Shown piece by piece: positions 1-12,212 of a DNA stretch of 13,700 nt. Numbering within the stretch: position 1 is the stretch's first letter; each line of letters starts with the position of its first letter. The stretch comes from a virus. The position numbers and the translations under genes are program-made. The DNA is taken from UHGV virus genome UHGV-1812412, one strand, 5' to 3'. The notes beneath the pieces are model-generated. The model saw only the letters and a list, made by a program, of their open reading frames with translations. It searched no databases and had not been told where the DNA came from.

Positions 1-660
1 AAGGCTAAAGAGTTCGGCATGACCGGATCAGAGGTTGGCGAGCTTATCGGGAAACTGGTAGTCGGCTTAGCTGGTCTGAAAGTTATTACTACACTGCTTT
101 CCCCTCTAACCGGATTTGTTTCACTTGTCACCCAACTGATTTCTCTGATAGGCAAGATTCCAGGTCTGGGCAATCTCGTTAAGGGTGCTGGCGGGGCAGT
201 CGCTGGAAGCCCAACAACAGCATTAGCCGCTGGCAGTGCCGCAGGTGTGGGTGTTGGTGTCGCTGGCGCACTGGGCGCTAAGACGGTAGGCGAGAAGTTC
301 AGAGGATGGATGCAAAGCAAGGCTGATCAGTTCGGGGAGTGGGCTAAATCTAAAGGCCTGCTTAGCGATGAACAGGACGCTATGACCAAACCGGGGGCCT
401 ATAACCATAGCTACATCAACAAGGGGGCTTCCTTTAATCCATATCCAACCATTAGCCCGTCACGTCCTACTCCTAGCACTGGTACGGCTATTCAGAATGG
501 TGGCTATCAACCTGCTCAGGTTAATGTGGTGCCTCAAGGTGAGATTTCCGGCAAATGGGAGATAACTATTGATGAGGGGGGAATTGCCAGGGTGATCCAG
601 AAGGAAGTCAGCGATCAGTTGGATTGGAAAGCCACACAGGAATCTAACCAGCTTTTCTAA
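1..660 (+). CDS. Partial CDS (5' end outside window): C-terminal part of a phage tail tape-measure-like protein
   Basis: Frame 1 is open from position 1 (AAG GCT AAA GAG TTC GGC precede the first ATG at 19), stop TAA at 658-660. Product has two hydrophobic helices followed by a Gly/Ala-rich segment (GAGGAVAGSPTTALAAGSAAGVGVGVAGALGA), a pattern typical of tape measure C-terminal regions. Assignment is by composition only. Confidence 0.45.
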   Translation, partial: KAKEFGMTGSEVGELIGKLVVGLAGLKVITTLLSPLTGFVSLVTQLISLIGKIPGLGNLVKGAGGAVAGSPTTALAAGSAAGVGVGVAGALGAKTVGEKFRGWMQSKADQFGEWAKSKGLLSDEQDAMTKPGAYNHSYINKGASFNPYPTISPSRPTPSTGTAIQNGGYQPAQVNVVPQGEISGKWEITIDEGGIARVIQKEVSDQLDWKATQESNQLF

Positions 661-768
661 TGTCCACTCTGTGGATTTGAGTTCTACTCAAACCTGCATA
701 GCAGGCACTAATATTGTGATCTAAATCAATAAGTTAGCCTGACCGGATAAACTCCAGGCAAGAAAAAA

Positions 769-793
769 GCCCCTAAGTGTTAACAAAGGGGCT
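769..793 (-). terminator. Hairpin terminator oriented for minus-strand transcripts
   Basis: GCCCC (769-773) pairs with GGGGC (788-792) around a 14-nt loop; an A-tract at 762-768 on the + strand gives a U-tract after the hairpin on the - strand. Lies about 435 nt downstream of the last minus-strand gene. Confidence 0.45.
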
Positions 794-824
794 CTTCTCC
801 GGTATCCTTTTGATGCGGGGCAAA

Positions 825-870
825 ACCTGCTAACAAAAATCAACCTCTCGCGAGACTAATGTTAGCAGGT
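825..870. repeat. Perfect 11-bp inverted repeat (ACCTGCTAACA / TGTTAGCAGGT) with a 24-nt spacer that contains the palindrome TCTCGCGAGA
   Basis: Read directly: 825-835 is the exact reverse complement of 860-870; nested palindrome at 845-854. Confidence 0.7.
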
Positions 871-1227
871 TGCCGGAAGGTAAGTCAACTCCGGCCTATA
901 AACCTTAAAGCGACTATAAAATCGCCCCGCCAATTGTGATGATCCGACCTTTGAGGCGGGTCCGGTGCCCAGGGGGTGCAGTGATGCACAAACCAGGCAA
1001 CGATAAACAGGCTAACAGTGATAGCGGCGCTCAATCAGCGCACTAAATCCTAACCAGTCCGGGAAAGAGGCTGGCTCTATCGACCGCTCATGCACGGGAC
1101 AATGCATACCTGATAAAGGATTCTCACAAGGGACCAATCGCGAGAAAAGAAGTGGAAAGGGGCTGATTTGTGGTGTATCACTACGGCCTCAAAAGAACAC
1201 TATTGTCTTTTTTAAGCCGGACCGTGA

Positions 1228-1686
1228 TTAGCCTCTCCCCACATTTGACCAATATTTGATTGCACCGATCAAATCATCATAGTGGCGCATGGCATCATTG
1301 AAGCCTTTATAGCTTGCCCATTGTGGGGAAACCTTGTTATTGCTGAATTGCCCACTAATCAGGATAGTCTCCAAAATGTCGGCGTATCGCTTGCCAATTC
1401 GCTTTCTGACGGCCTCAGAGCTCCCACCCTTTACGATTGCATTAATCAGGGCTTTTGTGTGTCTCAGGCTCTCATAGAGCATTGCAGCGTGGGCAGATTC
1501 CATAAAGGAGCGCTTAGGCAGATCACCCCACCCCTCAGAATGAATTGCTGCCAGTGTGGCGTAATTCAGGCCGCTATAGTGCTTTCCGTCATCCCAGCCA
1601 ACCGCTACACCTTCCATCTGTGAGAGCTCTTTATGCAGCTTATCCATCATGCGCTTGTCTATGGTGCAACGGACTTTCGGACTCAT
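1228..1686 (-). CDS. Hypothetical phage-associated protein, 152 aa
   Basis: Intact ORF; its ATG (1686..1684) overlaps the stop of the upstream gene in an ATGA arrangement (translational coupling); GGAGA 7 nt upstream. No family recognised. Confidence 0.55.
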   Translation of the reverse strand: MSPKVRCTIDKRMMDKLHKELSQMEGVAVGWDDGKHYSGLNYATLAAIHSEGWGDLPKRSFMESAHAAMLYESLRHTKALINAIVKGGSSEAVRKRIGKRYADILETILISGQFSNNKVSPQWASYKGFNDAMRHYDDLIGAIKYWSNVGRG

Positions 1687-2513
1687 TTGTTGATCTCCGT
1701 GATGTCATCGAGCAACATGTTGGCCTTATCAATCATCGTTTCGTGGAACTCATTCGACACAACAGACTTATCACCTGCGGCAATCTTTCCAGCAGCCTCT
1801 CCCTGTGCATATTCCCCGCGATGCTTAGCCCTGGTTGATTTCGTAGCAGCGTTGCCAGCGTTGCTACCCTCTTTAGCACTATTAACAGCACCCTTTTGCT
1901 GTGTTTTATTCACCTTCTTACTGTTAGTGAAAACTCCGGCATTTTCGACCATCTTCACCTTGAAGGTGCGGAATTCTTCAAAAGTGCAATCAATAGTGAT
2001 GCAGTCACCAGAGGAAGAGCTACGCTTAACTTCACATTTCGTCATGATGAAGTTCTCAAGGAGTCCGGCATCTTCACTTACCAGGCTAACAAGCTGGCGC
2101 TTGTCTCTCATTTCTATAAGTGCCTGAACAGCGGCGGCAGGGCGCATAGATTCACGGGGATTATCTGGATCAGTGTTCCGGTCGATGTAGTTCTCTTTCC
2201 GGATGATATGAGGGGAAGAGGTAATAATGCCCGTAAAGCTGACAGATTTATCTTTAATGACGGCATGGTCTGACATGGTGGTGCCATCCTCGACCGCATA
2301 GCTCGATTTCTCAACAGGGAACGAATAGCTGACATCAGAGATAGAGTCAAAGAAGATAGCCACATTATCGGTATAGTTGAAGCCATCCATTATATTTTTG
2401 TTTTGTGAATATCCCCCACACATAACAGTGAATGCAGGAGATCTCGACTCAGCTTGTTTTGCAGCTGTCAGAGCATCACTAGCCATAGTAAACATGCCTC
2501 CAAATTGGTCCAC
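1683..2513 (-). CDS. Hypothetical protein, 276 aa, with a Lys/Ala/Gly-rich low-complexity C-terminal region
   Basis: Intact ORF coupled to the downstream gene. The first ATG at 2513 has no usable Shine-Dalgarno; an in-frame ATG at 2486 has GGAGG 10 nt upstream and may be the true start. No family recognised. Confidence 0.55.
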   Translation of the reverse strand: MDQFGGMFTMASDALTAAKQAESRSPAFTVMCGGYSQNKNIMDGFNYTDNVAIFFDSISDVSYSFPVEKSSYAVEDGTTMSDHAVIKDKSVSFTGIITSSPHIIRKENYIDRNTDPDNPRESMRPAAAVQALIEMRDKRQLVSLVSEDAGLLENFIMTKCEVKRSSSSGDCITIDCTFEEFRTFKVKMVENAGVFTNSKKVNKTQQKGAVNSAKEGSNAGNAATKSTRAKHRGEYAQGEAAGKIAAGDKSVVSNEFHETMIDKANMLLDDITEINK

Positions 2514-2645
2514 TTCATGGATTTGGCTAAAGCCAAACCTGCAAAAGATGCAGGCAAAATAGAACTTATCGTTGCCCTGCTTAAAATCTGCAGAAAATAC
2601 AGGGCAGTTATTCGTTAGAATCGCTTATAGCTCTTCCCGAGAGCG

Positions 2646-2897
2646 TTATTTTGCAAAACGGTTATGGGCATTCAGGGCTTTTTTGCGGTCCTGGGCTTGT
2701 TTGCGTGCAATAAAATGTTCGAAAGTCTCGGCCCAGGTGCATTTATTATATTCACGGTACTTATGCATAGCCTGGCGGCTAACGTCATAGCAGGCGGCAA
2801 ATGTGGAGATACGCAGAAATTCCGGCAGATCCTCGTCATCGATATGGATAATATCAAAAGGCACGTCGTCACGGTCGCCGTATAAAACAATTTTCAT
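2646..2897 (-). CDS. Small protein, 83 aa, possible helix-turn-helix DNA-binding protein
   Basis: ORF track starts at a GTG at 2906; the in-frame ATG at 2897 has GAGGTG 6 nt upstream. Segment ISTFAACYDVSRQAMHKY resembles an HTH. Function not established. Confidence 0.5.
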   Translation of the reverse strand: MKIVLYGDRDDVPFDIIHIDDEDLPEFLRISTFAACYDVSRQAMHKYREYNKCTWAETFEHFIARKQAQDRKKALNAHNRFAK

Positions 2898-2931
2898 AAA
2901 AGACACCTCAAAAACTTAAGACGGGGATAAT

Positions 2932-2980
2932 AAAAAAGGGAAGAGGGAAAGACCTATCCCCGATCTCTCACCTCTTCCCT
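2932..2980 (-). terminator. Rho-independent terminator immediately downstream of the capsid-like gene
   Basis: 9-bp stem GGGAAGAGG (2938-2946) / CCTCTTCCC (2971-2979) with a 24-nt loop; A6 at 2932-2937 on + gives a U-tract after the hairpin on the - strand. T-rich on the + side too (2980-2994), so possibly bidirectional. Confidence 0.6.
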
Positions 2981-3010
2981 TTGCTTTTATTTGGCCTTCG
3001 AAGAAGGACC

Positions 3011-4054
3011 TTATTTAGCCTTGGCTTTTGCCAGAGCAGCGGCGGCGGAGTTACTAACACTCACTTTAACCACAACCTCAGGCATCATGTTCATGAAAGC
3101 ATAAGAGGATTCAATGAAGATTTCTCGTTTACCTCTGGACTCTTCCATATACATGAAAGCTTCACGTGCAGCGCCGTTTGCAAGCTTCAGGTTGCGAGCG
3201 CAAGGGCCGAAAAATTGAGTATAAACGCCCACCATATCGCCTAACGCATGTGGCTGGAATTGTGGGACCAGATAAGCAGTATTCTCTGGCAGACTATCCA
3301 TTTGCACCACACGCAGAGCTAAGCCCGGAATGCGGAAGGTCGGGAAGCCCGGCAGAATATCCTCAGGGAACATCAGACCTTTATCGGTAATATTCTGATT
3401 GCCGAACAACAGCACTTTACGGAGCAGTTCATCAGTCTGAATAGCGGCGAACACCTCAGCACGGCAGAACAGGGTGAAACCACGCAGAGCGCGAACGACA
3501 CCACGCTGTTTAACCTTGCTCAGTGCAACCAGGTCCTGCAGTTGTTTGAGAATATCTTGAGCTAGATCCATTTCAGAGGTGGACTGTTCCACGCCCAGCA
3601 GTTCGCACACATTCAGCTCTTTACCCTTGGTGAGGATAATTTTGTTCTCAAAGAGAGCAAGCTGGCGTGCTTCTTCGTGGGTCTGGCGTAAGCCTTCGCC
3701 CAGTTGAATAACACGACGAGCGGTTACAGACTCTAAATTCTCTTCGGAATCTTTGCCCGGAACACGGATACCTTGCCAGTCAGAAGGATAAATAGCACTT
3801 GATGCGGCAGTGAATGCCATATCACCCGTGCCCGTTTCACGCTCATCTGCGGTAATGGTCGCCATCTGTTCACCGTAGCGCGGATACTGACCGAAAGCGG
3901 TTTGTTTCACCTGGCGAACTTTGTCATATTCAAATTTAAAGGTATTGCACAGAGCAGTAGTGTTGAAGATATCCATTGCTGAAATAATCTGGTTATCCAG
4001 CGGGATGTCTTTAATCAAGCCACACAGATCGCGGACTTCGAATTCTTTTTTCAT
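3011..4054 (-). CDS. Putative phage major capsid protein (lambda gpE-like), 347 aa
   Basis: Long ORF; ATG at 4054 with GGAGG 6 nt upstream (ORF track begins at a TTG at 4060). N-terminal MDIFNTTALCNTFKFEYD and C-terminal IESSYAFMNMMPEVVVKVSV resemble lambda gpE (TTAQLL...KFKFD; MIQSAPLMLLADPDEFVSV) as recalled from memory, not search-verified. Followed by a strong terminator, as expected for a highly expressed capsid gene. Confidence 0.55.
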   Translation of the reverse strand: MKKEFEVRDLCGLIKDIPLDNQIISAMDIFNTTALCNTFKFEYDKVRQVKQTAFGQYPRYGEQMATITADERETGTGDMAFTAASSAIYPSDWQGIRVPGKDSEENLESVTARRVIQLGEGLRQTHEEARQLALFENKIILTKGKELNVCELLGVEQSTSEMDLAQDILKQLQDLVALSKVKQRGVVRALRGFTLFCRAEVFAAIQTDELLRKVLLFGNQNITDKGLMFPEDILPGFPTFRIPGLALRVVQMDSLPENTAYLVPQFQPHALGDMVGVYTQFFGPCARNLKLANGAAREAFMYMEESRGKREIFIESSYAFMNMMPEVVVKVSVSNSAAAALAKAKAK

Positions 4055-4065
4055 CTCCAACCTCC

Positions 4066-4401
4066 TTATTGTGCAACACGCAAATCGCCATTGCTGGCAG
4101 CGATAACAGCGGCTAAGCCTTCTTTATCCACGTAGGCCGGATTGATATAACAGCCCTTGTTGGCAACAACGATAAAAGCATCACCAACCTCAGCACGTTC
4201 TACAACCAGCAGCGGAGTTTTATCGGTGTGCGTTTCTTTAACGAAGGTCTCAACCTCGCCAGCCTCAGTCACCACAACAACAGTGCCAGCCGGAATCTCA
4301 GCTTTAACTTTGTTTTTAATTTCAACGTCGCGAATACTAAATTGCTCATCTGCGGCGTATGAAATGATGTGTCCGCGTGTGCGGATAGTCATATCTCTCA
4401 T
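4066..4401 (-). CDS. Putative head decoration / capsid accessory protein, 111 aa
   Basis: ORF ends 11 nt before the capsid start; AGGTGA 6 nt upstream of its ATG. Size and position directly upstream of the capsid gene fit a decoration or cement protein. Function is by context only. Confidence 0.45.
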   Translation of the reverse strand: MRDMTIRTRGHIISYAADEQFSIRDVEIKNKVKAEIPAGTVVVVTEAGEVETFVKETHTDKTPLLVVERAEVGDAFIVVANKGCYINPAYVDKEGLAAVIAASNGDLRVAQ

Positions 4402-5215
4402 TTGATCACCTGCGATTTAAATTAACTCCCCTCAAAGAGTTCCGGTATAACCTCTCAAACCACGACGCTCGGGCCGAAAAGTTATGCCGGAAATCTAAAG
4501 GGAAATTGATACAAGGAGAGGGAGATAGCCCCGCACCGTCCAAGCGGGGGCTATTCCATATGGGGAAAACCAACAACAGTTGGCTGATAGTTCACAGTAT
4601 GGGTTACTAGAGAGCACTATCACGAAAGACACTCCCCCGAATCAGTTCAGGCTGCGGTCACATCAGCGGGGAAATACCTTTCGGGATAGCTACCCACACA
4701 GAAAACCCGCAAAAGAAAACTGTGTGGATAACTAGCCCAATAGGAGAATTAATCGACCACTCAACGATGATCAGGGTAGTGTTATTTATAAGGCGGCACC
4801 GCTACCTGGTCGCCTTTACTTTGGAGGAAAATACGGCAAATCAAGATCTTCTCACAATGATATTGACGCCATACTGTATATTATATCAGTATTTACTCAC
4901 ATTGTCAACACCCTGATTATATAAATTCTAATAATTAGCGTAGTAACGGTATTTTCAGACCTCTATCAATCCCATCAATACGTCACCCCACCCTTTAGAT
5001 GCATACATCCGACCTACTTTGTAGGCTTGGCGTACTGCCAAGGTCGCAGCTATGCGACTCCTATCTATCACCACTTTATAAAGCTTGATAGATATCCGTT
5101 GATCAATATCAATGTTTTCCGGGGATTTACCCGGCTATAGTTCGAATCAAGGAAGGGGAGCATTGATAGCACCCAACCGAGCAAACAAATCAACTTCTCG
5201 CAAAAGGTTATAGAT

Positions 5216-5338
5216 ATGGGTATCAAGAACAGTGCCAGCGCATGGCAAAAGGCCAGGTTTCATCACCCACACATGGTTAAGGCAATTGAGGTGGTTGGAG
5301 TTTTAGCCCTGATGTTAGCTCTGTGTGTGGAGGTGTGA
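5216..5338 (+). CDS. Micro-ORF, 40 aa, hydrophobic C-terminus (MGIKNSASAWQKARFHHPHMVKAIEVVGVLALMLALCVEV)
   Basis: ATG preceded by AAAGG 8 nt upstream inside a 17-nt leader motif that is duplicated before the membrane protein gene; its stop is 1 nt before the next ATG. Confidence 0.25.
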   Translation: MGIKNSASAWQKARFHHPHMVKAIEVVGVLALMLALCVEV

Positions 5339-5339
5339 G

Positions 5340-5420
5340 ATGGGCAAAGGAGGCAAAGCATTTTTAATAGGTCTGGCAGTCTTAGATTTTGTATTAATCA
5401 TCATTGAGCGGAGTTTATGA
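5340..5420 (+). CDS. Micro-ORF, 26 aa, single hydrophobic helix (MGKGGKAFLIGLAVLDFVLIIIERSL)
   Basis: ATG at 5340 with GGAGG 6 nt upstream; its stop overlaps the ATG of the following HTH gene (ATGA at 5417-5420). Confidence 0.25.
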   Translation: MGKGGKAFLIGLAVLDFVLIIIERSL

Positions 5421-5677
5421 CGGGAACTAAAGATATTAAGAGACTGAGGGAAGAGCTGATAGCTGAAATTAAAGCGAAGGCAAAGCAAATGGAGATAGCC
5501 GCACAAATGGATGTAGCGGAACAGATGTACAAGATGGTTGAGGAGGGAACGCCACGACAGGTTATAGCAAAAACCTTCGGTGTGGGGATCGCCACCGTGC
5601 ACAGAAGGCTGAAAGCCTATGCCGACTACCACAATATCGAGAGAAAGGAGGATGGGAGATTTAAGAAGAATAAATAG
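5417..5677 (+). CDS. Small DNA-binding protein with resolvase/invertase-type helix-turn-helix, 86 aa
   Basis: Segment TPRQVIAKTFGVGIATVHRRLK matches the pattern of the Hin/Gin-type C-terminal HTH (PRQ-LA-FG-G-ST--R, recalled from memory); N-terminal half predicted coiled coil. No catalytic recombinase domain present. Confidence 0.65.
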   Translation: MTGTKDIKRLREELIAEIKAKAKQMEIAAQMDVAEQMYKMVEEGTPRQVIAKTFGVGIATVHRRLKAYADYHNIERKEDGRFKKNK

Positions 5678-5769
5678 TGTGAACAGTCCAATAGGTTAAG
5701 CTCTGGCTCATAGCCCTCGCCTCGAGGGTGTTATTAACTAAATTCAACTTCTCGCAAAGGGGTACCATT

Positions 5770-6291
5770 ATGTTATTTCAGAAAGATAAAGAATCAGAAA
5801 ACAAAAAGCTTTTTAAAGCAATAGTAAAAATGTTCTTTCAGTACACTGCAGCGTTTTTGATAGCCGGGCCTTGGTTAATGGCTATCTGTTTTTACCCTGC
5901 TACCTTGTTTATTGGCAGTAGCAAGTTCGGCGATGGCCCGTTTCATGTGGATATTGGTTTTATAGATTCTCTCCTGATCCGTCCTATAAATGCTGTTCTC
6001 AATGCTTTCTACTTCCCCACTAGTCTAGAGGGGTGGTCGGTAACCTGGGGTGTTTTAGGCTTAGCATATGTATATTGGTTGGTTGGCTTTTTGTGGGGTG
6101 CAATCTGTGCTCTCCTCGATATTGATACAGGATCAAGCCGTAGGAGTGGTGGTAATAATAGCGGAGCGGGTGTATATGCACACGTAGGTACCAGAGGGGT
6201 AAGTATCACCGCAGGTACCCGATTCGCTGGCGGCTGGCTGAGCATAGGCAAACGCGGCGTTAGTTGGAGAAAAAGCAAAAAACTGTTCTGA
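5770..6291 (+). CDS. Membrane protein, 173 aa from ATG 5770, with at least two hydrophobic helices and a Gly-rich basic tail containing a repeated G-x-R-G-V-S motif
   Basis: ORF track starts at a GTG at 5728; the ATG at 5770 has AAGGGG 7 nt upstream. Hydrophobic helices FFQYTAAFLIAGPWLMAICFYPATLFI and WGVLGLAYVYWLVGFLWGAICALL; tail has GTRGVS and GKRGVS. Terminator directly downstream. Confidence 0.6.
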   Translation: MLFQKDKESENKKLFKAIVKMFFQYTAAFLIAGPWLMAICFYPATLFIGSSKFGDGPFHVDIGFIDSLLIRPINAVLNAFYFPTSLEGWSVTWGVLGLAYVYWLVGFLWGAICALLDIDTGSSRRSGGNNSGAGVYAHVGTRGVSITAGTRFAGGWLSIGKRGVSWRKSKKLF

Positions 6292-6298
6292 CCTACCA

Positions 6299-6322
6299 GG
6301 GGGGCCATCACGGCCCCTTTTT
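6299..6322 (+). terminator. Rho-independent terminator after the membrane protein gene
   Basis: GGGGCC (6301-6306) / GGCCCC (6312-6317) stem with 5-nt loop, followed by TTTTT (6318-6322). Confidence 0.7.
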
Positions 6323-7636
6323 ATTTATCCCTCAATTAACCCCTATTTATCCCCTATTTAATGCCTATTTATTGATTTAATCCGTTTTATGCCACAACCG
6401 CCCGGTTGACAGAGTAAGAGAGAGGGTGTAACCCTTTTTCGTAATACCAATAAAATCAATAGCTTAGCTCAATTGGCCTTTTCTCTGTTTTTGTCAAATT
6501 TAACATACCCTCAAAAACTGCAAAATCTGGCTGCAAGATTATCTGCAGCTGGATTTCTTACACCTCAATTTGTGGTATCACCCTGACTAGTTTGTGCATA
6601 AAATGAACAGTTTTTAACATTTCCTCCTCACCTGGTAACCACACAAAAAGCTAAAAACGAGGCACAGATAATCTTAGAGGCCTGTTTTCTTGTTATCACT
6701 CTGGGAACGTCGTAGAAGTGATTTTGATGAAAGACGGCCTACCCTATTACACCCCCATTTTTTGTTATCACAATTGCATCCTGTGCGGTATATGACTATG
6801 TGCTGAAAGCGGTCTCAGGTGTTGGTGTCAGAAATATCCATTAGCGGTATTTGAGCTTATGGGTAACTCGTCTGAGGTGCCAGGCAGGCGCTCCCCTACC
6901 TCCCCTTTTTCTTCTAACAATTCTCAAATATCACACCACTGCCCACCACGTTGCTATTATGTTAATTCTTAAGCTTTGCTGTATGTTGTGCACATTATTT
7001 ATTCAGATGCATGTACGTAAATTCTGTGCCCACTGATCATGATTTTTAAATCAGATTTTGTAGTGCGCTTTATTAGTGTAGATAAGATCTATTATGTTAA
7101 ATGCAATTTTCCCAACCCTTCAAATCAATGACTTACATGTAAGCATGCACTAACACCCCACACAGCACATTAGACGTGTAGATGTCTATATCCCACATTT
7201 TTGATTGTTTTGTAGTCATTCCCCTGATCATTTAACCAGTATAGTTTGCTCTCTGCAGACCACAAAATCGGAATTTACATCTGATTAACATAATCTGTTA
7301 GCATGATCACCATTACCCACACAACAATAACCCCATGCAAGCCTCTTCAGGCAATTTATCGGCGTGTTGGTGTGAACAGTCTTTCATGTTCTTTATGTAT
7401 TCATGACTGCAAGGAATGTATTCATTGGCCTGTGTGGGGGAAGGATGGACTGCCTCAGGGGCCATACTTATGATGCCCGGTCAACATAGCTGTTGATAAA
7501 ATCAATGGGTGTTGATCTGCGTATTTCCCACACATGAGAGGAAATCAAAGCAAAGAGAGAGGAGAGAGGTTTGTTAGTCAAAATAGGTCAATTGACGGCT
7601 AATACAGAGTAAAAAATCAGATGCAATCACTCCCCC

Positions 7637-7819
7637 ACCTGTTGGGATTTCCCTCACCTGTATAAGAATACAGTCATACTTTCCCGTTATACGGTCATAC
7701 ACATGATGGAATAACCTGTTGGAATTTCCCACAGGTTCAACCATACATAAGCATTAACCTGTTGGAATTTCCTACTACTACCTGTCGGTATTTCCCACAG
7801 GTACCTGTTGGAATTTCCC
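7637..7819. repeat. Iteron array: five direct copies of a 17-mer ACCTGTYGGWATTTCCC
   Basis: Copies at 7637-7653, 7714-7730, 7757-7772, 7780-7796, 7803-7819; the last three are exactly 23 bp apart. Two copies are followed by the inverse ACAGGT. Partial copies of the ATTTCCCACA core at 7522-7534 and 8321-8333. Confidence 0.75.
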
Positions 7820-7911
7820 ACACTAATAGATAAAGAGAATAGATTAATAAAAAGATACCCCCCTAACCCCCCAGGGGGAATGGGGAGGGATCAGAGAGTG
7901 GGGAAGGTTTT

Positions 7912-8014
7912 CTAGATGTACGTAATTGGTACACTTAAAGGTGGATAATATGAGGCTAGATGTACGTAATTGGTACACTTAGAATATTCTAGATGTACGT
8001 AATTGGTACACTTA
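7912..8014. repeat. Three identical 26-bp direct repeats CTAGATGTACGTAATTGGTACACTTA, each with an internal dyad TGTAC-N7-GTACA
   Basis: Copies at 7912-7937, 7956-7981, 7989-8014; start-to-start spacing 44 and 33 bp (multiples of about 11, same helical face). A near DnaA box GGTGGATAA lies at 7940-7948. Confidence 0.8.
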
Positions 8015-8339
8015 AATCACATAAGTTATTGAGTTTATTAGAAAAAGTGATTCACCTATATATACTACTGATTCGCCTCCGCTCATCATTAGTATGGTGT
8101 AACTGATTCATGCTTCGCTTACGCTCACATTCATCTACTTACACCCCCTTATCTGAATTGAACATTCCCGTCCAATCCAGCTAAGAGAATTGATTGAACA
8201 TTACCTAACATCCGTTAGCTAACATTCTAATCAATTAACTACTTAATCACTTCCACACCTTCCGGTGGTGCCAAGTGTCCTGGCATGGTGGGAAAAGATT
8301 CTGCCGTTTTAGGTAGAATTGATTTCCCACAAATAGTAA

Positions 8340-8660
8340 GTGTCGGCCCTTCAATGTCACTCTCCTATGAGGGGGAGAGATGACGGGCCTCCTGTGTGGG
8401 TGAGTATCGGAGCAGTCTGTGAAGTATGAGCAGGCTGTGAGATACGCTACTGTATATCTGCGTAGAACAGCCTCCGCTGTTTACGCTCTTTGTGTGGGTC
8501 CGGCGAATGCGACAGCATGAGGCCCACATGTGGACCGCTGCCGAAAGCTTGCCAGCGCCGGAAGGAGGCGGCAAAGAGTCTCCCGCGCGGTTGTAGGTCC
8601 GCGCCGGACTTTAACTTACAGTTAAACCCTTCGGGCTTGTGCGGGTGCACGCACACATAT
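8340..8660. other. GC-rich, hairpin-dense non-coding island, candidate structured RNA or DNA processing site
   Basis: Sharp rise in GC relative to AT-rich flanks. Local stems include TCTCC/GGAGA (8361-8379), GCGCGG/CCGCGC (8585-8604), TTTAAC/GTTAAA (8609-8625) and GTGCG/CGCAC (8639-8654). The only ORFs are two overlapping Arg/Pro/Ser-rich minus-strand frames without RBS. Confidence 0.3.
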
Positions 8661-8843
8661 ATATAAAGGATACACTCATAAATCGAAAATAAGCGCGATT
8701 TTAGCGCCTACAGCGAGATAAACTATACTCCCTAGTGTAATTGCATTACCTGATGCTTAAATCGCGTTGTAGGGCCTCTCATGAGGTTTGAGTTTAACAC
8801 CCTCCAAAGTTTTAACAAAAAGTGCTCTCCCTCCATTGTGGGC

Positions 8844-9013
8844 CATTGACAATCTTATTGCATAAATGCTATAAGTTATTCTGATTTTGACACGGTAGGG
8901 GCCATTAATAATGCTTACCCCTTTGCTGTGGACTTGCTTGTGTCTGCTGTGCAGGCTATGGCACCTATAGCTCGCCTAAATGATAATGATTCCTATTGAC
9001 AATTGGTTGTCAA
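8844..9013 (+). promoter_or_regulatory. Operator-like 9-bp palindromes ATTGACAAT overlapping -35-like TTGACA hexamers; candidate tandem promoters
   Basis: ATTGACAAT at 8844-8852 and 8995-9003; the second is part of an 18-bp dyad TTGACAA-TTGG-TTGTCAA (8996-9013). Possible promoters: TTGACA 8846-8851 + 18 nt + TATAAG 8870-8875; TTGACA 8996-9001 + 17 nt + TAAGAT 9019-9024. Confidence 0.4.
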
Positions 9014-9059
9014 TATGATAAGATTATAGATAGTGGGAGAAACAGATCCGGAGGTCAAC

Positions 9060-9209
9060 GTGGAACTGAGCGACGCTATAGCGATCATCAACCTGGCTGT
9101 ACTGTGGTGCGGTGTTGCCTACATAGCCGGAGTAACTGCAATCGACAACCTTGAAGAAAAAATGATAGATAAATACAAAAAGATTGTTGACAATCTCGCA
9201 AATAGCTGA
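9060..9209 (+). CDS. Small hydrophobic protein, 49 aa, GTG start
   Basis: GGAGG at 9050-9054, 5 nt before the GTG at 9060; product MELSDAIAIINLAVLWCGVAYIAGVTAIDNLEEKMIDKYKKIVDNLANS has one predicted transmembrane helix. Not in the supplied ORF track (below the length cutoff). Confidence 0.35.
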   Translation: MELSDAIAIINLAVLWCGVAYIAGVTAIDNLEEKMIDKYKKIVDNLANS

Positions 9210-9215
9210 TAAAAT
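9182..9215 (+). promoter_or_regulatory. Sigma70-type promoter with an operator dyad over the -35
   Basis: -35 TTGACA (9187-9192), 17-nt spacer, -10 TAAAAT (9210-9215); dyad GATTGT-TG-ACAATC (9182-9195) overlaps the -35 and shares the TTGACAAT core with the upstream palindromes. Confidence 0.5.
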
Positions 9216-9263
9216 ATAAATCATAGGGTAATTCTCAGCATGTGAATTTTCCTTAAACAGACT

Positions 9264-9295
9264 AGCGGGGCTTGTCTTGAGTCCCGTTTCTTTTT
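9264..9295 (+). terminator. Promoter-proximal hairpin plus U-tract (attenuator or 3' end of a short RNA)
   Basis: CGGGGC (9266-9271) pairs with GTCCCG (9281-9286), with one G-U pair, around a 9-nt loop, followed by TTTCTTTTT (9287-9295). Sits about 50 nt after the predicted start site and 44 nt before the next ATG. Confidence 0.5.
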
Positions 9296-9338
9296 AAACC
9301 TACATCGCACAGGCGGTGAGCCAACAGGAGATTGAATC

Positions 9339-9548
9339 ATGGCTAAAACTGGACCGATCAGCCAGCTGGTAGACTGGACTACTGACGAAATCGTCGAGAA
9401 CGTGCTTAAAGGTAACTTTCGAAAAACTTCTGTTTATGCATTTATTCGAAAACACAAAGGAGAATATCCACACATTGAAGCGGCAATAGAAAAACTTAAC
9501 TTTATTAAACTTGAGCGCCAGCTGGAAAGATATAAACACCTACTTTGA
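9339..9548 (+). CDS. Small protein, 69 aa, possibly DNA-binding
   Basis: AGGAG at 9326-9330, 8 nt before the ATG; first gene after the promoter/attenuator. No family recognised. Confidence 0.6.
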   Translation: MAKTGPISQLVDWTTDEIVENVLKGNFRKTSVYAFIRKHKGEYPHIEAAIEKLNFIKLERQLERYKHLL

Positions 9549-9584
9549 TAAAAGGTAACCGTAACCCGGTAAGAGGTAAACATT

Positions 9585-10454
9585 ATGAATATTAAGTCTG
9601 TTTTTAATATAACTTTAAATGATGATCCTAGTATCCTTTTGCTGCCTATGCTCATAAACAAATCTGGACTATTAAAAAAAGGCGACGCAAGGGATATTTA
9701 TATTTATATGTGGAATATTTACTATCTCAACGCTAAAAAAGAGGCCGCCAAGGTGTTCAGTAAGAAGACTAAAGGAAGAAGCCTCAGTCAGGATATGAAA
9801 GATTCCATAAGAAAAGAATGTTTTGCAATTAATGATAAAGATTCCTGTGTGGAAATCTCTTATAAGGATATAGAGGAAAGAGTAGGAATATTACGACCAC
9901 ACGCAGTAAGGGCAATTAAAAAGCTGGAATCTGAAGGAATTATCACCTGCCTTAAAAAAGGCAATAAGCATAACCCTTATGCATCATGGCAAATTAATGT
10001 CGGAATCTTTGAAATGATGGAAAGAGTAGGGATTGAAAACCTCATTGGGTGGGATCTCTTAAAACCATATTGGAAGAAAGAACAGGAAGCAGCCGGAAGA
10101 GGGGAGGGGGATAAAGCCCCGCAAGAAGCCCCAAAACAGGCCGCACAGCAAGCTAAAAAGGCCGAGGTGGTGCAGTTCCCTTCTACGAAAGATAAGAGCG
10201 TCAGAATCGAGCGTAGCTCTCATCCTGAAAGTGTGACAACGTCACCTGTTAAGACAAACAATGAAGGGCCAGTGAAAGAGATACCCAAAATTATAGACAT
10301 TTCTTCTTTTATGGCAGATGAGGAAGATATGCAAGATGAGTGGTGGACACCTCCAGAAAATAATGATTATGGTTATGATCCTTATGGCTATGATGAAGAT
10401 GAATATAGCCCGTTTGAAGATGAATATATAAATGATTCCGCTATCCCTTATTAA
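9585..10454 (+). CDS. Winged-helix DNA-binding protein, 289 aa, with a Lys/Ala/Gln-rich linker and an acidic, aromatic C-terminal tail; candidate replication initiator or regulator
   Basis: AAGAGGT 7 nt before the ATG. Segment ISYKDIEERVGILRPHAVRAIKKLESEGIITC has the classic winged-helix pattern seen in replication initiators and MarR-like regulators; C-terminus DEEDMQDEWWTPPENNDYGYDPYGYDEDEYSPFEDEY. Function inferred. Confidence 0.75.
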   Translation: MNIKSVFNITLNDDPSILLLPMLINKSGLLKKGDARDIYIYMWNIYYLNAKKEAAKVFSKKTKGRSLSQDMKDSIRKECFAINDKDSCVEISYKDIEERVGILRPHAVRAIKKLESEGIITCLKKGNKHNPYASWQINVGIFEMMERVGIENLIGWDLLKPYWKKEQEAAGRGEGDKAPQEAPKQAAQQAKKAEVVQFPSTKDKSVRIERSSHPESVTTSPVKTNNEGPVKEIPKIIDISSFMADEEDMQDEWWTPPENNDYGYDPYGYDEDEYSPFEDEYINDSAIPY

Positions 10455-10542
10455 TACCCCCAAATAAACTAAATAAACTAAACATAGAATTACTAGAACT
10501 AGATTGATTGCCCTGATCTTTTAAACGTTCGGAGAATTAATC

Positions 10543-11028
10543 ATGTTCAAATCTGATCTTTCTGATTCCCAATTTGAAAAACTGGTAGCACTGCAGAAAT
10601 ATCTCCCCAGTGATGATCAACCAACACGACAGGCCAAACACTTATTAGTCGAGGGCTTTACCCCTGAATTCGTAGCGGAATATACAGGCGTTAAACTTGA
10701 GAAAGTCCAAAAACTATATAATGAGTCCTGGAATCCACGGTGTCGAGTTCCCCTCAGTGTCTATAACGAAATAGATAGAGATAAAAATGTCTTCGAAGAT
10801 CGCCGCCGCAAATCTCTTTTAATGTGGAATTGCGGGATGAATATTGAAGAGATAGCAAAAGAATTAAAAGTAACCTGCTTTCATATTTGGGGCTTGTTGA
10901 GTGAAATCCTGCCACGTAAGGAGCTTAATCAACGTTTGCCTAAGCCCGGTAGTCGTGCTTATCGCGAATTTATATTCATCTACCGCCGCCATAGCAATAA
11001 AGTCCGGAAAGCAATGCAGCGCAAATAG
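10543..11028 (+). CDS. Hypothetical protein, 161 aa, with two HTH-like segments and a basic C-terminus
   Basis: GGAGA 7 nt before the ATG; HTH-like segments FTPEFVAEYTGVKLEKVQKLY and MNIEEIAKELKVTCFHIWGLL. Could be a small terminase subunit-like or regulatory protein; not resolved. Confidence 0.7.
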   Translation: MFKSDLSDSQFEKLVALQKYLPSDDQPTRQAKHLLVEGFTPEFVAEYTGVKLEKVQKLYNESWNPRCRVPLSVYNEIDRDKNVFEDRRRKSLLMWNCGMNIEEIAKELKVTCFHIWGLLSEILPRKELNQRLPKPGSRAYREFIFIYRRHSNKVRKAMQRK

Positions 11029-11116
11029 CTTATAGCCTTCACATATGCCGCAAGTTATTGATTCTGCCGTCCGGTAAATATGCCGGATGGCTCATATAAA
11101 TTTTAAGGAATTCCAA

Positions 11117-11560
11117 ATGTCTCAAATCGCTAAATTACTATCCCAGGTTATCAAAGCTATCGACGCTGAAGATTCAAAAGTTCGCCAGGATCTTTTAGAT
11201 GGCAAGTTTACCAATACTCTGGCATTTACCCGTGACAAAGAGCACTTCTTAGAGCACAAACATCCCGCCTTTGTTGAATGCAAGTCCGCTAATGGTGATG
11301 TTTTCTATGTCGATTTGGTGGTTATGGCTATGCGCCTGTGGATGATTCAGGACCTTATGCGCCAACACGGTGATGATCCTCTTATCAGCATGTGGAACAG
11401 CGCCCAGGATGGCTTTGTGATTGCTGCCTTATCCAAATCCATGATTGAGGCAGAAGGCGCAAGCCTTCAAAACATGGCAGATCTCTTTGAAATAAGCGTA
11501 GGAATGATGCAGACCATGCTGCAGGCGGTGAAGCCTCTCAAGCTGGTTAACCTTGAATAA
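11117..11560 (+). CDS. Hypothetical protein, 147 aa
   Basis: ORF track begins at an ATG at 11087 with no RBS; the in-frame ATG at 11117 has AAGGAA 6 nt upstream. Followed by a terminator. Confidence 0.65.
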   Translation: MSQIAKLLSQVIKAIDAEDSKVRQDLLDGKFTNTLAFTRDKEHFLEHKHPAFVECKSANGDVFYVDLVVMAMRLWMIQDLMRQHGDDPLISMWNSAQDGFVIAALSKSMIEAEGASLQNMADLFEISVGMMQTMLQAVKPLKLVNLE

Positions 11561-11571
11561 TTGATTAATAA

Positions 11572-11606
11572 GCACCCTCAAAAAATGGGGGTGCCTTTAT
11601 TTATCT
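11572..11606 (+). terminator. Rho-independent terminator
   Basis: GCACCC (11572-11577) / GGGTGC (11589-11594) stem followed by the T-rich run CTTTATTTATCTT. Confidence 0.6.
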
Positions 11607-11638
11607 TACTTTTCACGTTTATCTAAAAGGATATGCCT

Positions 11639-12022
11639 ATGAATATTGAAGAAATGATAGTTGAATTCGATGATGGTGATTTCCTGGAAGATGGGGAGTT
11701 TAAATACTCCCGTTTTAAACAGGCGTTATTTAGCAGCGATGATAAACCCCACGTTAGTGATCTAAATGACGATGATTTATGTCGCTGGGTATGCACCCGC
11801 TTATATGAGGATGGAAAATATACAGGCCAAAACTTTCCAAATCTCTATTTCAAAGCACAAACATTTGAGGAAGGGCAAAGAGTGAAAAACCTGGTCGATA
11901 AAATGCTGTCAGCCGGATATTTGCATAAAGAATTATTAAATCCTAAAGCTGAAAGCAAGCGCCATTATATTTTTGTGTGGACTATTGGCGATAAGTGTCC
12001 ACTAAGACGCAAAGGCAAATGA
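11639..12022 (+). CDS. Acidic protein, 127 aa, in the position of a tail assembly chaperone
   Basis: ATG at 11639 has AAGGA 8 nt upstream (the ATG at 11633 is too close to it). Product is strongly acidic at the N-terminus; sits two genes upstream of the tape measure gene, as gpG-like chaperones do. Inferred from position and composition. Confidence 0.55.
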   Translation: MNIEEMIVEFDDGDFLEDGEFKYSRFKQALFSSDDKPHVSDLNDDDLCRWVCTRLYEDGKYTGQNFPNLYFKAQTFEEGQRVKNLVDKMLSAGYLHKELLNPKAESKRHYIFVWTIGDKCPLRRKGK

Positions 12023-12023
12023 T

Positions 12024-12209
12024 ATGAATACCTACGAAAAGATTTATCAAAAATTAAAAAGTGATAACAATGCTCCCGTCATCAAGGGCGGGGCTTCTTC
12101 CTCTGGTGACCTCTCAATCGAAGAGCTTGCGGAGAAATATAATATTGATAAAGAGGCCCTGAAAAGGGCTATTTCATTATCAAAATCTTTAAGACAGGGC
12201 GAGGTGTAA
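12024..12209 (+). CDS. Small protein, 61 aa, immediately upstream of the tape measure gene
   Basis: ATG 1 nt after the stop of the preceding gene (TGA-t-ATG); ends 3 nt before the tape measure ATG. Could be independent or the extension part of a frameshifted chaperone. Confidence 0.45.
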   Translation: MNTYEKIYQKLKSDNNAPVIKGGASSSGDLSIEELAEKYNIDKEALKRAISLSKSLRQGEV

Positions 12210-12212
12210 GAG

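Follow-up and report, generated by a model that had tools for sequence, protein, structure and literature searches.

Four small plus-strand genes lie between the structural genes and an origin-like region of the virus genome UHGV-1812412 (positions 5190–6322), and they raise two linked questions: what the genes do, and what kind of element carries them. A first-pass annotation had described them as an accessory cassette of two hydrophobic micro-open reading frames (micro-ORFs), a resolvase-type helix-turn-helix (HTH) protein and a membrane protein with a glycine-rich tail. Its proposal of a function in superinfection exclusion, abortive infection or toxicity is one that we still rate as a guess. 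We analysed the complete 13,700-nucleotide (nt) stretch (hereafter, the window), in which the cassette joins a regulator to a position for variable cargo, within an element that resembles a satellite and with proteins that are all orphans. The reading that we favour, at a probability of roughly 0.4, is that the cassette is an operon of a plasmid satellite that pairs a regulator with an exchangeable host-envelope effector and would act in superinfection exclusion or lysis timing.

The window was compared with 23 close relatives (complete plasmids, NCBI/ENA contigs, Logan assemblies and 2 metagenome contigs), which form lineage 1 with it, and with six distant relatives, comprising lineage 2 (L008, L009, L131 and L132) and lineage 3 (L007 and L128). 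Transmembrane (TM) segments, signal peptides and anchors are predictions from hydropathy throughout; tail charge was counted.

A conserved operon with a discrete end

All four predicted ORFs are present on the plus strand, but the tight coupling ascribed to them holds for the first three only. A 1-nt gap separates micro-ORF1 from micro-ORF2, the next junction is a 4-nt ATGA overlap with the HTH gene, and a 92-nt spacer precedes the fourth gene. As proposed, the array sits between the structural genes and the iteron-bearing origin region as a discrete operon. It is bounded by long stretches (4402–5215 and 6292 to approximately 8530) that stay free of ORFs under genetic codes 11, 4 and 15; codes 4 and 15, considered as a cause of these empty flanks, were rejected, as no long ORFs appear with either. 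The terminator expected at the cassette end (6298–6320) is also there, as a hairpin of −16.5 kcal/mol (z = −2.5) that no shuffled sequence equals and that does not vary among the relatives.

Comparative evidence marks the cassette as a conserved small operon and not a product of chance, because micro-ORF1 shows third-position bias, because micro-ORF1, the HTH gene and the membrane-protein gene have ratios of non-synonymous to synonymous substitution rates (dN/dS) of 0.11–0.32, and because the same kinds of gene recur in two distant lineages. The layout of a regulator with a membrane protein, noted at the outset, is borne out, and none of the genes has homology to a morphogenetic protein. Calling the cassette undescribed is likewise fair, since all of its proteins are orphans. 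No DNA similarity to sequenced phages was found for 5000–6500.

The last gene occupies a swap slot

The feature that sets this operon apart is the behaviour of its fourth gene. In an alignment of the relatives (alignment A1), near-identity runs through the leader TTAACTAAATTCAACTTCTCGCAAAGGGGTACCATTATG and resumes at the terminator CCAGGGGGCCATCACGGCCCCTTTT, and the coding sequences in between are unrelated. This position is a recombinational swap slot, delimited by a conserved 40-nt leader with its ribosome-binding site on the left and by the conserved terminator on the right (6298–6325, plus strand; GGGGGCC-ATCAC-GGCCCC followed by a T-run; invariant in alignment A1).

Three unrelated alleles occupy the slot: type A, a multi-TM protein of 172–176 amino acids (aa), which is the allele of the window; type B, a signal-peptide protein of 195 aa; and type C, an N-terminally anchored protein of 236 aa. 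Each of the three has a predicted export or membrane-anchor segment, and most of the close relatives carry type B or type C instead of type A. The identical HTH protein (WP_042962565.1) adjoins type A in plasmid pVTB448v-4 and type B in pJNE25-003_2, which indicates that exchange at the slot is recent. Type B is itself a mosaic with two hypervariable blocks, and is confined to 13–14-kb contigs of Escherichia coli and Shigella. Neither type B nor type C has a match in Pfam, PHROGs, PADLOC or NCBIfam or a phage homologue, and tblastn searches of phages with alleles A, B and C returned none. Homology between the N-terminal TM regions of types A and C, which share a GPW motif, was considered and dropped (BLASTP E = 0.07, short of significance).

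On its left, the slot is bounded by a second copy (5741–5764, plus strand) of a leader motif whose first copy (AAATCAACTTCTCGCAAAAGGTTA; 5187–5210, plus strand) stands before micro-ORF1. Both copies keep the same register, 29 nt before the ATG, and the second is retained before all three alleles. The leader core TCAACTTCTCGCAAARGG has two exact copies in the window against 0.01 expected. The leader 15-mer TCAACTTCTCGCAAA was examined as a signal shared with phages and rejected as such, because its 106 matches in IMG/VR, single and scattered over unrelated contigs, are about the number estimated to arise by chance in such a collection.

Alignment A1 and folding also reveal a 35-nt insertion that is specific to the window (5696–5730, plus strand); it lies in the spacer that separates the fourth gene from the HTH gene and forms a hairpin (CCCTCG/CGAGGG). 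Other relatives have different short (35–50 nt) hairpin-forming insertions at intergenic points of the cassette, near the equivalent of window position 5170 in L001 and L004, and between the HTH gene and the slot in L004. These insertions are possible mobile stem-loops or recombination scars.

Type A has an invariant basic tail

The slot allele of the window (5770–6291, plus strand) encodes a predicted inner-membrane protein of 173 aa with 2–3 TM segments and a basic, Gly/Arg-rich tail of beta type at approximately residues 131–173. Its frame is open from GTG 5728, and ATG 5770 is the start common to the other slot alleles. Among nine family members (37–95% overall identity) the tail is invariant and the membrane part divergent: the tail keeps the pattern G.Y.H.GTRG.S.T.G.R.AGGWLS.GKRG..WRKSK..F. 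over approximately 40 residues, and dN/dS is 0.32 for the whole protein and 0.13 for the tail. One member, P0021, consists of a single TM segment and the tail only. With 10 Lys/Arg against 2 Asp/Glu the tail is basic and therefore, by the positive-inside rule, probably cytoplasmic.

The claim that the GxRGVS tail belongs to no family that can be named is nearly right; a match to DUF4236 (PF14020) does exist, but it stays below threshold, at 12.6–12.9 bits (E 0.16–0.2) in three of the nine members against a Pfam gathering score of 27 bits. The weak alignment covers model positions 20–55, and both families repeat a G-x-R-G-x-S, beta-hairpin-like pattern within approximately 40 residues; the type A motif differs in being C-terminal and membrane-anchored. 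A literature search found no function described for DUF4236.

Type A is otherwise an orphan. A word-indexed search of 5.8 billion proteins yielded 8 clusters, and an exhaustive profile search of 1.84 billion representatives yielded 5, all of which belong to the type A family; no DUF4236 proteins and no larger family were recruited. In PLSDB, tblastn found type A in this plasmid family only, and homology to a lysis family was found in neither Pfam nor PHROGs.

A Hin-type DNA-binding protein beside a divergent promoter

Upstream of the slot, an 86-aa protein (5417–5677, plus strand) combines a long N-terminal helix with a Hin/resolvase-type HTH. The early resolvase-type assignment is supported by a Pfam HTH_7 match of 27.5 bits, above the gathering score of 23.8 bits, and the best solved-structure match of the family profile is the Hin DNA-binding domain (1hcr, E = 7e-4). 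The HTH of the protein aligns to this Hin domain, but the protein lacks the catalytic domain of a serine recombinase: it is only 86 aa long, residues 1–40 form a single helix, and no Resolvase-domain match was found. Unlike in Hin, the HTH domain stands alone behind its approximately 40-residue helix. The gene has a dN/dS of 0.11, the lower end of the cassette's range. PADLOC matches are weak and generic, the best being to a CARF-associated HTH segment (E = 3.7e-4). No relatives were found in IMG/VR, and tblastn against PLSDB found the protein in this plasmid family only.

The DNA between the cassette and the capsid operon contains promoters in both directions. On the minus strand, a sigma-70 promoter (4880–4908; TTGACA-17-TATAAT with a TG extension, 12/12 matches), located approximately 310 nt upstream of micro-ORF1, faces away from the cassette and drives the capsid operon, which begins with a 111-aa gene, via a leader of approximately 480 nt; lineage 2 has an equivalent, TTGACT-17-TATAAT, at the same relative place. 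Back-to-back with it is a candidate cassette promoter on the plus strand (4891–4920; TTTACT-18-GATTAT), which was read by eye. Its GATTAT and a −35 of TTAACT/TTTACT recur in lineage 2, and the candidate is weak in relatives that have TTCTCT.

Overlapping the minus-strand −10 element is a LexA-box-like palindrome, TACTGTATATTATATCAGTA (4872–4891), which matches the SOS-box consensus at 15 of 20 positions and keeps CTG-N10-CAG. We infer that LexA could bind there, and the virion genes may be under SOS control. A second SOS-like box, ACCTGTATAAGAATACAGTC (CTGT-N8-ACAG; 7656–7675), lies beside the iterons, and good LexA boxes also occur at other places in the non-coding DNA of lineage 2, such as ACTGTATGCACATACAGTGT in L008.

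One micro-ORF is conserved and the other decays

Both of the hydrophobic micro-ORFs described at first are present, with different fates. Micro-ORF1 (5216–5338, plus strand) encodes a predicted tail-anchored membrane peptide of 40 aa, with a polar N terminus and a TM segment at approximately residues 24–38. It is intact at 40 aa in all 23 close relatives, and its polymorphic sites fall 1:2:8 over the three codon positions (8 of 11 at the third), with a dN/dS of 0.24, a pattern that points to purifying selection. Its similarity to a 42-aa peptide of lineage 3 (E = 0.05) is suggestive only.

Micro-ORF2 (5340–5420, plus strand) encodes a 26-aa hydrophobic peptide with one TM segment, and its stop overlaps the HTH start. 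We place its own start at ATG 5340, which is preceded by a GGAGG Shine–Dalgarno sequence; the ORF list gives GTG 5325. It does not hold up as a stable member of the cassette: in 11 of the 23 relatives, truncations or frameshifts at short runs of T have broken it, and it is dispensable in lineage 1 and decaying. A role as functional partner of type A was considered and ruled out, as its integrity is independent of the slot allele (4 intact and 3 broken with type A, 7 and 8 with type B; Fisher p = 1).

The cassette in distant lineages

In lineage 2 the cassette starts after a gap of approximately 1.1 kb behind the capsid operon, as in the window. The order there is a micro-peptide of 31–45 aa, an HTH homologue that bears a C-terminal extension of 90–165 aa, a very hydrophobic peptide of 38–39 aa and type A; the second peptide shows 9–10 synonymous against 3–4 non-synonymous codon changes. 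Lineage 3 has a larger arrangement, one long rightward operon that includes a 40-aa gene of Lambda_Kil type, a number of TM peptides and a type A homologue. The occurrence of micro-peptides, HTH protein and type A in three diverged lineages marks them as an ancestral core set of the element family. The label ‘accessory’ is therefore only partly apt: the last gene behaves as cargo, but the rest of the cassette belongs to that core. Lineage 1 alone has turned the last position into an exchangeable slot. Between the lineages, the non-coding flanks of the cassette have no detectable nucleotide conservation.

The 40-aa gene of lineage 3 belongs to the Lambda_Kil family (PF06301; L007 5402–5524, L128 1752–1874) and is the first gene after the non-coding gap. 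Many small genes follow it, some of them for TM peptides that are relatives of the lineage 1 and lineage 2 micro-peptides; among these, a 79-aa protein matches phrog_4641 (E = 7e-16).

A plasmid carrier with part of a virion gene set

As a replicon the window is circular and complete, a plasmid of E. coli. Seven circular E. coli plasmids (13.2–13.7 kb) and one 39.6-kb record match region 5000–6500; pE275a_13 and four further PLSDB plasmids, all typed as non-mobilizable, align with the whole window end to end, and the tape-measure ORF (12210..657, plus strand) closes across the window ends. Public assemblies contain the element repeatedly as 13–14-kb contigs: in the index of a public assembly collection, P0009, the exact HTH variant, appears under 228 blocks, 194 of them with contigs of 10–20 kb. 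The family is thus one of autonomous E. coli/Shigella plasmids of approximately 13.5 kb. The 39.6-kb record (L134, NZ_CP043822.1, 39,610 bp) is a head-to-tail trimer of the element, either a real multimer or an assembly artefact. Multimers of P4 fill P2-sized heads, which the approximately 40 kb of three genome lengths recalls.

The plasmid encodes part of a virion. On the minus strand are a capsid gene (3011–4060; phrog_29, E = 9e-22; Phage_cap_E in relatives), preceded in the same operon by the 111-aa gene, which is gpD-sized, and, within 1228–2513, a Dit-like tail gene (Pfam E = 1.6e-25) and a Neck1/tail-completion-like gene; the tape-measure gene is on the plus strand (phrog_5255, E = 4e-165). 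An O-like replication initiator (Rep) gene adjoins the iterons at 7637–8016. No ORF of the plasmid qualifies as a gene for a terminase, a portal, a protease, a fibre or a lysis protein, and none is of terminase or portal size. Its genes include no integrase, no recombinase elsewhere, no recognizable partition genes and no endolysin or spanin.

Such a gene content combines an incomplete virion and packaging set with replication functions of its own, as expected of a satellite. Given the partial virion set, the element's own Rep and the lack of a terminase, portal or lysis gene, the element is most likely an undescribed plasmid-borne phage satellite; a literature search found no description of it. 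Two indirect hints of helper dependence are the affinities of the tail genes and the one trimer record. The closest relatives of the three tail genes are in large virulent myoviruses of the rV5/FV3/phiTE type (51% identity for the Dit-like, 49% for the Neck1-like and 27% for the tape-measure protein), which makes these phages candidate helpers. The capsid gene had no tblastn match in 50,697 sequenced phage records. With the window being a whole plasmid with a partial virion set, the likely biology of the cassette shifts from that of a prophage moron to an interplay of satellite and helper.

What the cassette may do

In our favoured reading, the HTH protein would be the transcriptional regulator of the element, with the divergent promoter region between the cassette and the capsid operon as its target. 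The slot proteins would act at the cell envelope upon phage infection, by exclusion at DNA entry or by interference with lysis timing, to the benefit of the plasmid-bearing cell or of the element during helper infection. In type A, the divergent TM part would anchor the invariant tail, basic and rich in beta structure, at the inner membrane's cytoplasmic face, with the tail as the effector surface. Envelope localization of the slot proteins is predicted by hydropathy and, for type A, by a low-confidence AlphaFold2 model.

Several observations weigh against this reading. The cassette has no homology to known exclusion, abortive-infection, holin or toxin proteins, and its components match no PADLOC defence models, NCBIfam families, PHROG lysis or toxin families or Rfam antisense RNAs. 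No convincing operator for the HTH protein emerged from k-mers shared by the non-coding flanks of lineages 1 and 2, which fall only in the divergent promoter core and in a few short islands on the origin side. The TACTGTATATTATATCAGTA box is intact in 8 of the 18 close relatives that have the anchor (the others have a 1-nt deletion, giving ATG..CAG), and it is not conserved in lineage 2. The structure prediction suggested at the outset gave unusable models: for type A, three helices and a four-strand tail at a mean predicted local distance difference test (pLDDT) score of 47.5, too low for a fold search; for type B, a mean pLDDT of 48.7, and a Foldseek search of that model against the PDB and BFVD returned no match at E ≤ 0.001. 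Type A is kept at the same place in the distant lineages, as would befit more than disposable cargo, and the satellite status of the carrier is itself deduced from gene content.

A more specific version, which we hold to be unlikely, makes the cassette the host-interface operon of a new class of autonomous plasmid satellites of large virulent rV5-like myoviruses, with discrimination of self from non-self at injection. Here the slot effectors would block DNA injection by helper or competing phages, and the block would spare particles whose tape-measure and Dit proteins come from the element itself. Type A would be a DUF4236-like tail protein anchored in the membrane, types B and C its alternatives, the 40-aa peptide a partner and the Hin-type HTH protein the regulator.

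Of the rivals to a regulated envelope effector, a lysis or lysis-timing module is the strongest, albeit less probable than even the host-interface version: the micro-peptides and type A, as holin/antiholin-like proteins or in the manner of LidI, would time lysis during helper infection. Small TM peptides do lie beside a protein of 2–3 TM segments with a highly basic C-terminal tail, and a basic cytoplasmic C terminus is a general trait of holins; moreover, in lineages 2 and 3 the gene immediately upstream of type A encodes a small, very hydrophobic protein, and the plasmid itself lacks lysis genes. Yet no holin or lysis family is matched in Pfam or PHROGs, no endolysin or spanin accompanies the genes, 173 aa is large for a holin and the gene resides on an apparently stable plasmid. 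Type A is also replaced in most close relatives by a soluble signal-peptide protein or a differently built anchored one, which makes an essential lysis gene unlikely. We consider it improbable that micro-ORF1 is instead a type I membrane toxin of the Hok/TisB kind that stabilizes the plasmid by post-segregational killing, with the rest of the operon unrelated. Its strict conservation, its 40 aa with one TM segment and the absence of recognizable partition genes on the plasmid would suit such a role, and hok/sok, too, has a short hydrophobic peptide gene on a plasmid. Unlike hok, micro-ORF1 is part of a polycistronic operon, as the first of four cistrons with an accessible Shine–Dalgarno sequence, and not a stand-alone gene; there is no antisense RNA signal, with no minus-strand promoter–terminator pair around 5190–5340 and no Rfam antitoxin RNA at E ≤ 1, which leaves some room for an antisense RNA of a new kind, and the peptide has no sequence similarity to Hok or other known type I toxins.

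We judge just as improbable a packaging module, in which the HTH protein would be small-terminase-like or a cos/pac-recognition factor that steers helper packaging, with the membrane genes as passengers. The element has no terminase, yet as a satellite it would need packaging; small terminases are in many cases short HTH proteins that form oligomers; the cassette is flanked by phased repeats; and in lineage 3 a protein of 183 aa that contains an HTH, encoded at a similar position, faintly matches a small-terminase PHROG (E = 0.016). The 86-aa protein nevertheless matches best the DNA-binding domain of Hin and generic PHROGs of DNA-binding proteins or regulators, and not terminase families; its order of helix first and HTH last reverses the typical domain order of small terminases, and no homologue of it was found in any sequenced phage or IMG/VR contig. 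Finally, that the genes are chance ORFs in non-coding plasmid DNA has next to no probability left. The annotation pipeline PGAP does call no more than two of these ORFs, and breaks in micro-ORF2 are common; against this stand purifying selection on micro-ORF1, the HTH gene and type A, Pfam support for the HTH gene and an architecture kept across three lineages, comparative data that refute the idea for three of the four ORFs.

Relation to known systems

Lambda SieB and RexB, P22 SieA, HK97 gp15 and T4 Imm and Sp are small inner-membrane exclusion proteins without enzymatic domains, and exclusion morons are often lineage-specific orphans, encoded as terminal or stand-alone cistrons beside regulators. 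The cassette resembles these in placing a small envelope protein beside a regulator on a mobile element. It differs in having no sequence or fold similarity to them, in the Gly/Arg tail of type A and in its carrier, a plasmid with a partial virion set. The slot also recalls the hotspots of P4-like satellites and of PICIs (phage-inducible chromosomal islands), at which unrelated cargo alternates at a fixed position between conserved flanks, but it holds a single orphan envelope protein and no recognizable defence system. The element is an autonomous plasmid that has no integrase and, unlike P4, carries capsid and tail genes of its own. LidI, a small membrane protein of the Vibrio cholerae PICI-like element (PLE), a satellite of a virulent myovirus, alters lysis timing; its likeness to the slot proteins is one of functional analogy only, without homology.

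The carrier plasmid is probably a more novel object than the cassette. A 2025 review states that to date a single plasmid has been demonstrated to be a phage satellite, that of an inovirus (PMC12282955). If the carrier is a satellite, it would extend satellites to autonomous plasmids of tailed phages. The slot itself offers three orphan envelope proteins, and no relatives of these were detected beyond a single plasmid family. In satellites and in prophages, variable cargo slots have proved rich in new genes for phage defence and counter-defence. The hypotheses set out here are directly testable, because so small a cassette is readily cloned and nature supplies the swap variants in its alleles.

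Further non-coding features

Directly after the terminator, approximately five repeats of the form (C/G)4TATTTA(A/T) follow one another with 11-bp phasing (6322–6376), and we infer a protein-binding or bent-DNA site. Near the origin are five iterons of 23 nt (7637–7825) and three repeats of 30 nt (7910–8016). A search of 4300–9600 against Rfam found nothing at E ≤ 1, and the flanks contain no transfer RNA. Approximately 3 kb, roughly a quarter of the replicon, is free of ORFs in every lineage (the gap in L009 measures 3.3 kb), an unusually large non-coding share for a 13.7-kb element. On the origin side, this DNA has a few short islands in common with lineage 2. A different non-coding segment, between the tape-measure and Neck1-like genes (881–1208), is 75% identical to lineage 2 (L008 2039–2370); it is better conserved between the lineages than most coding DNA, which makes it a candidate cos/pac site or RNA element.

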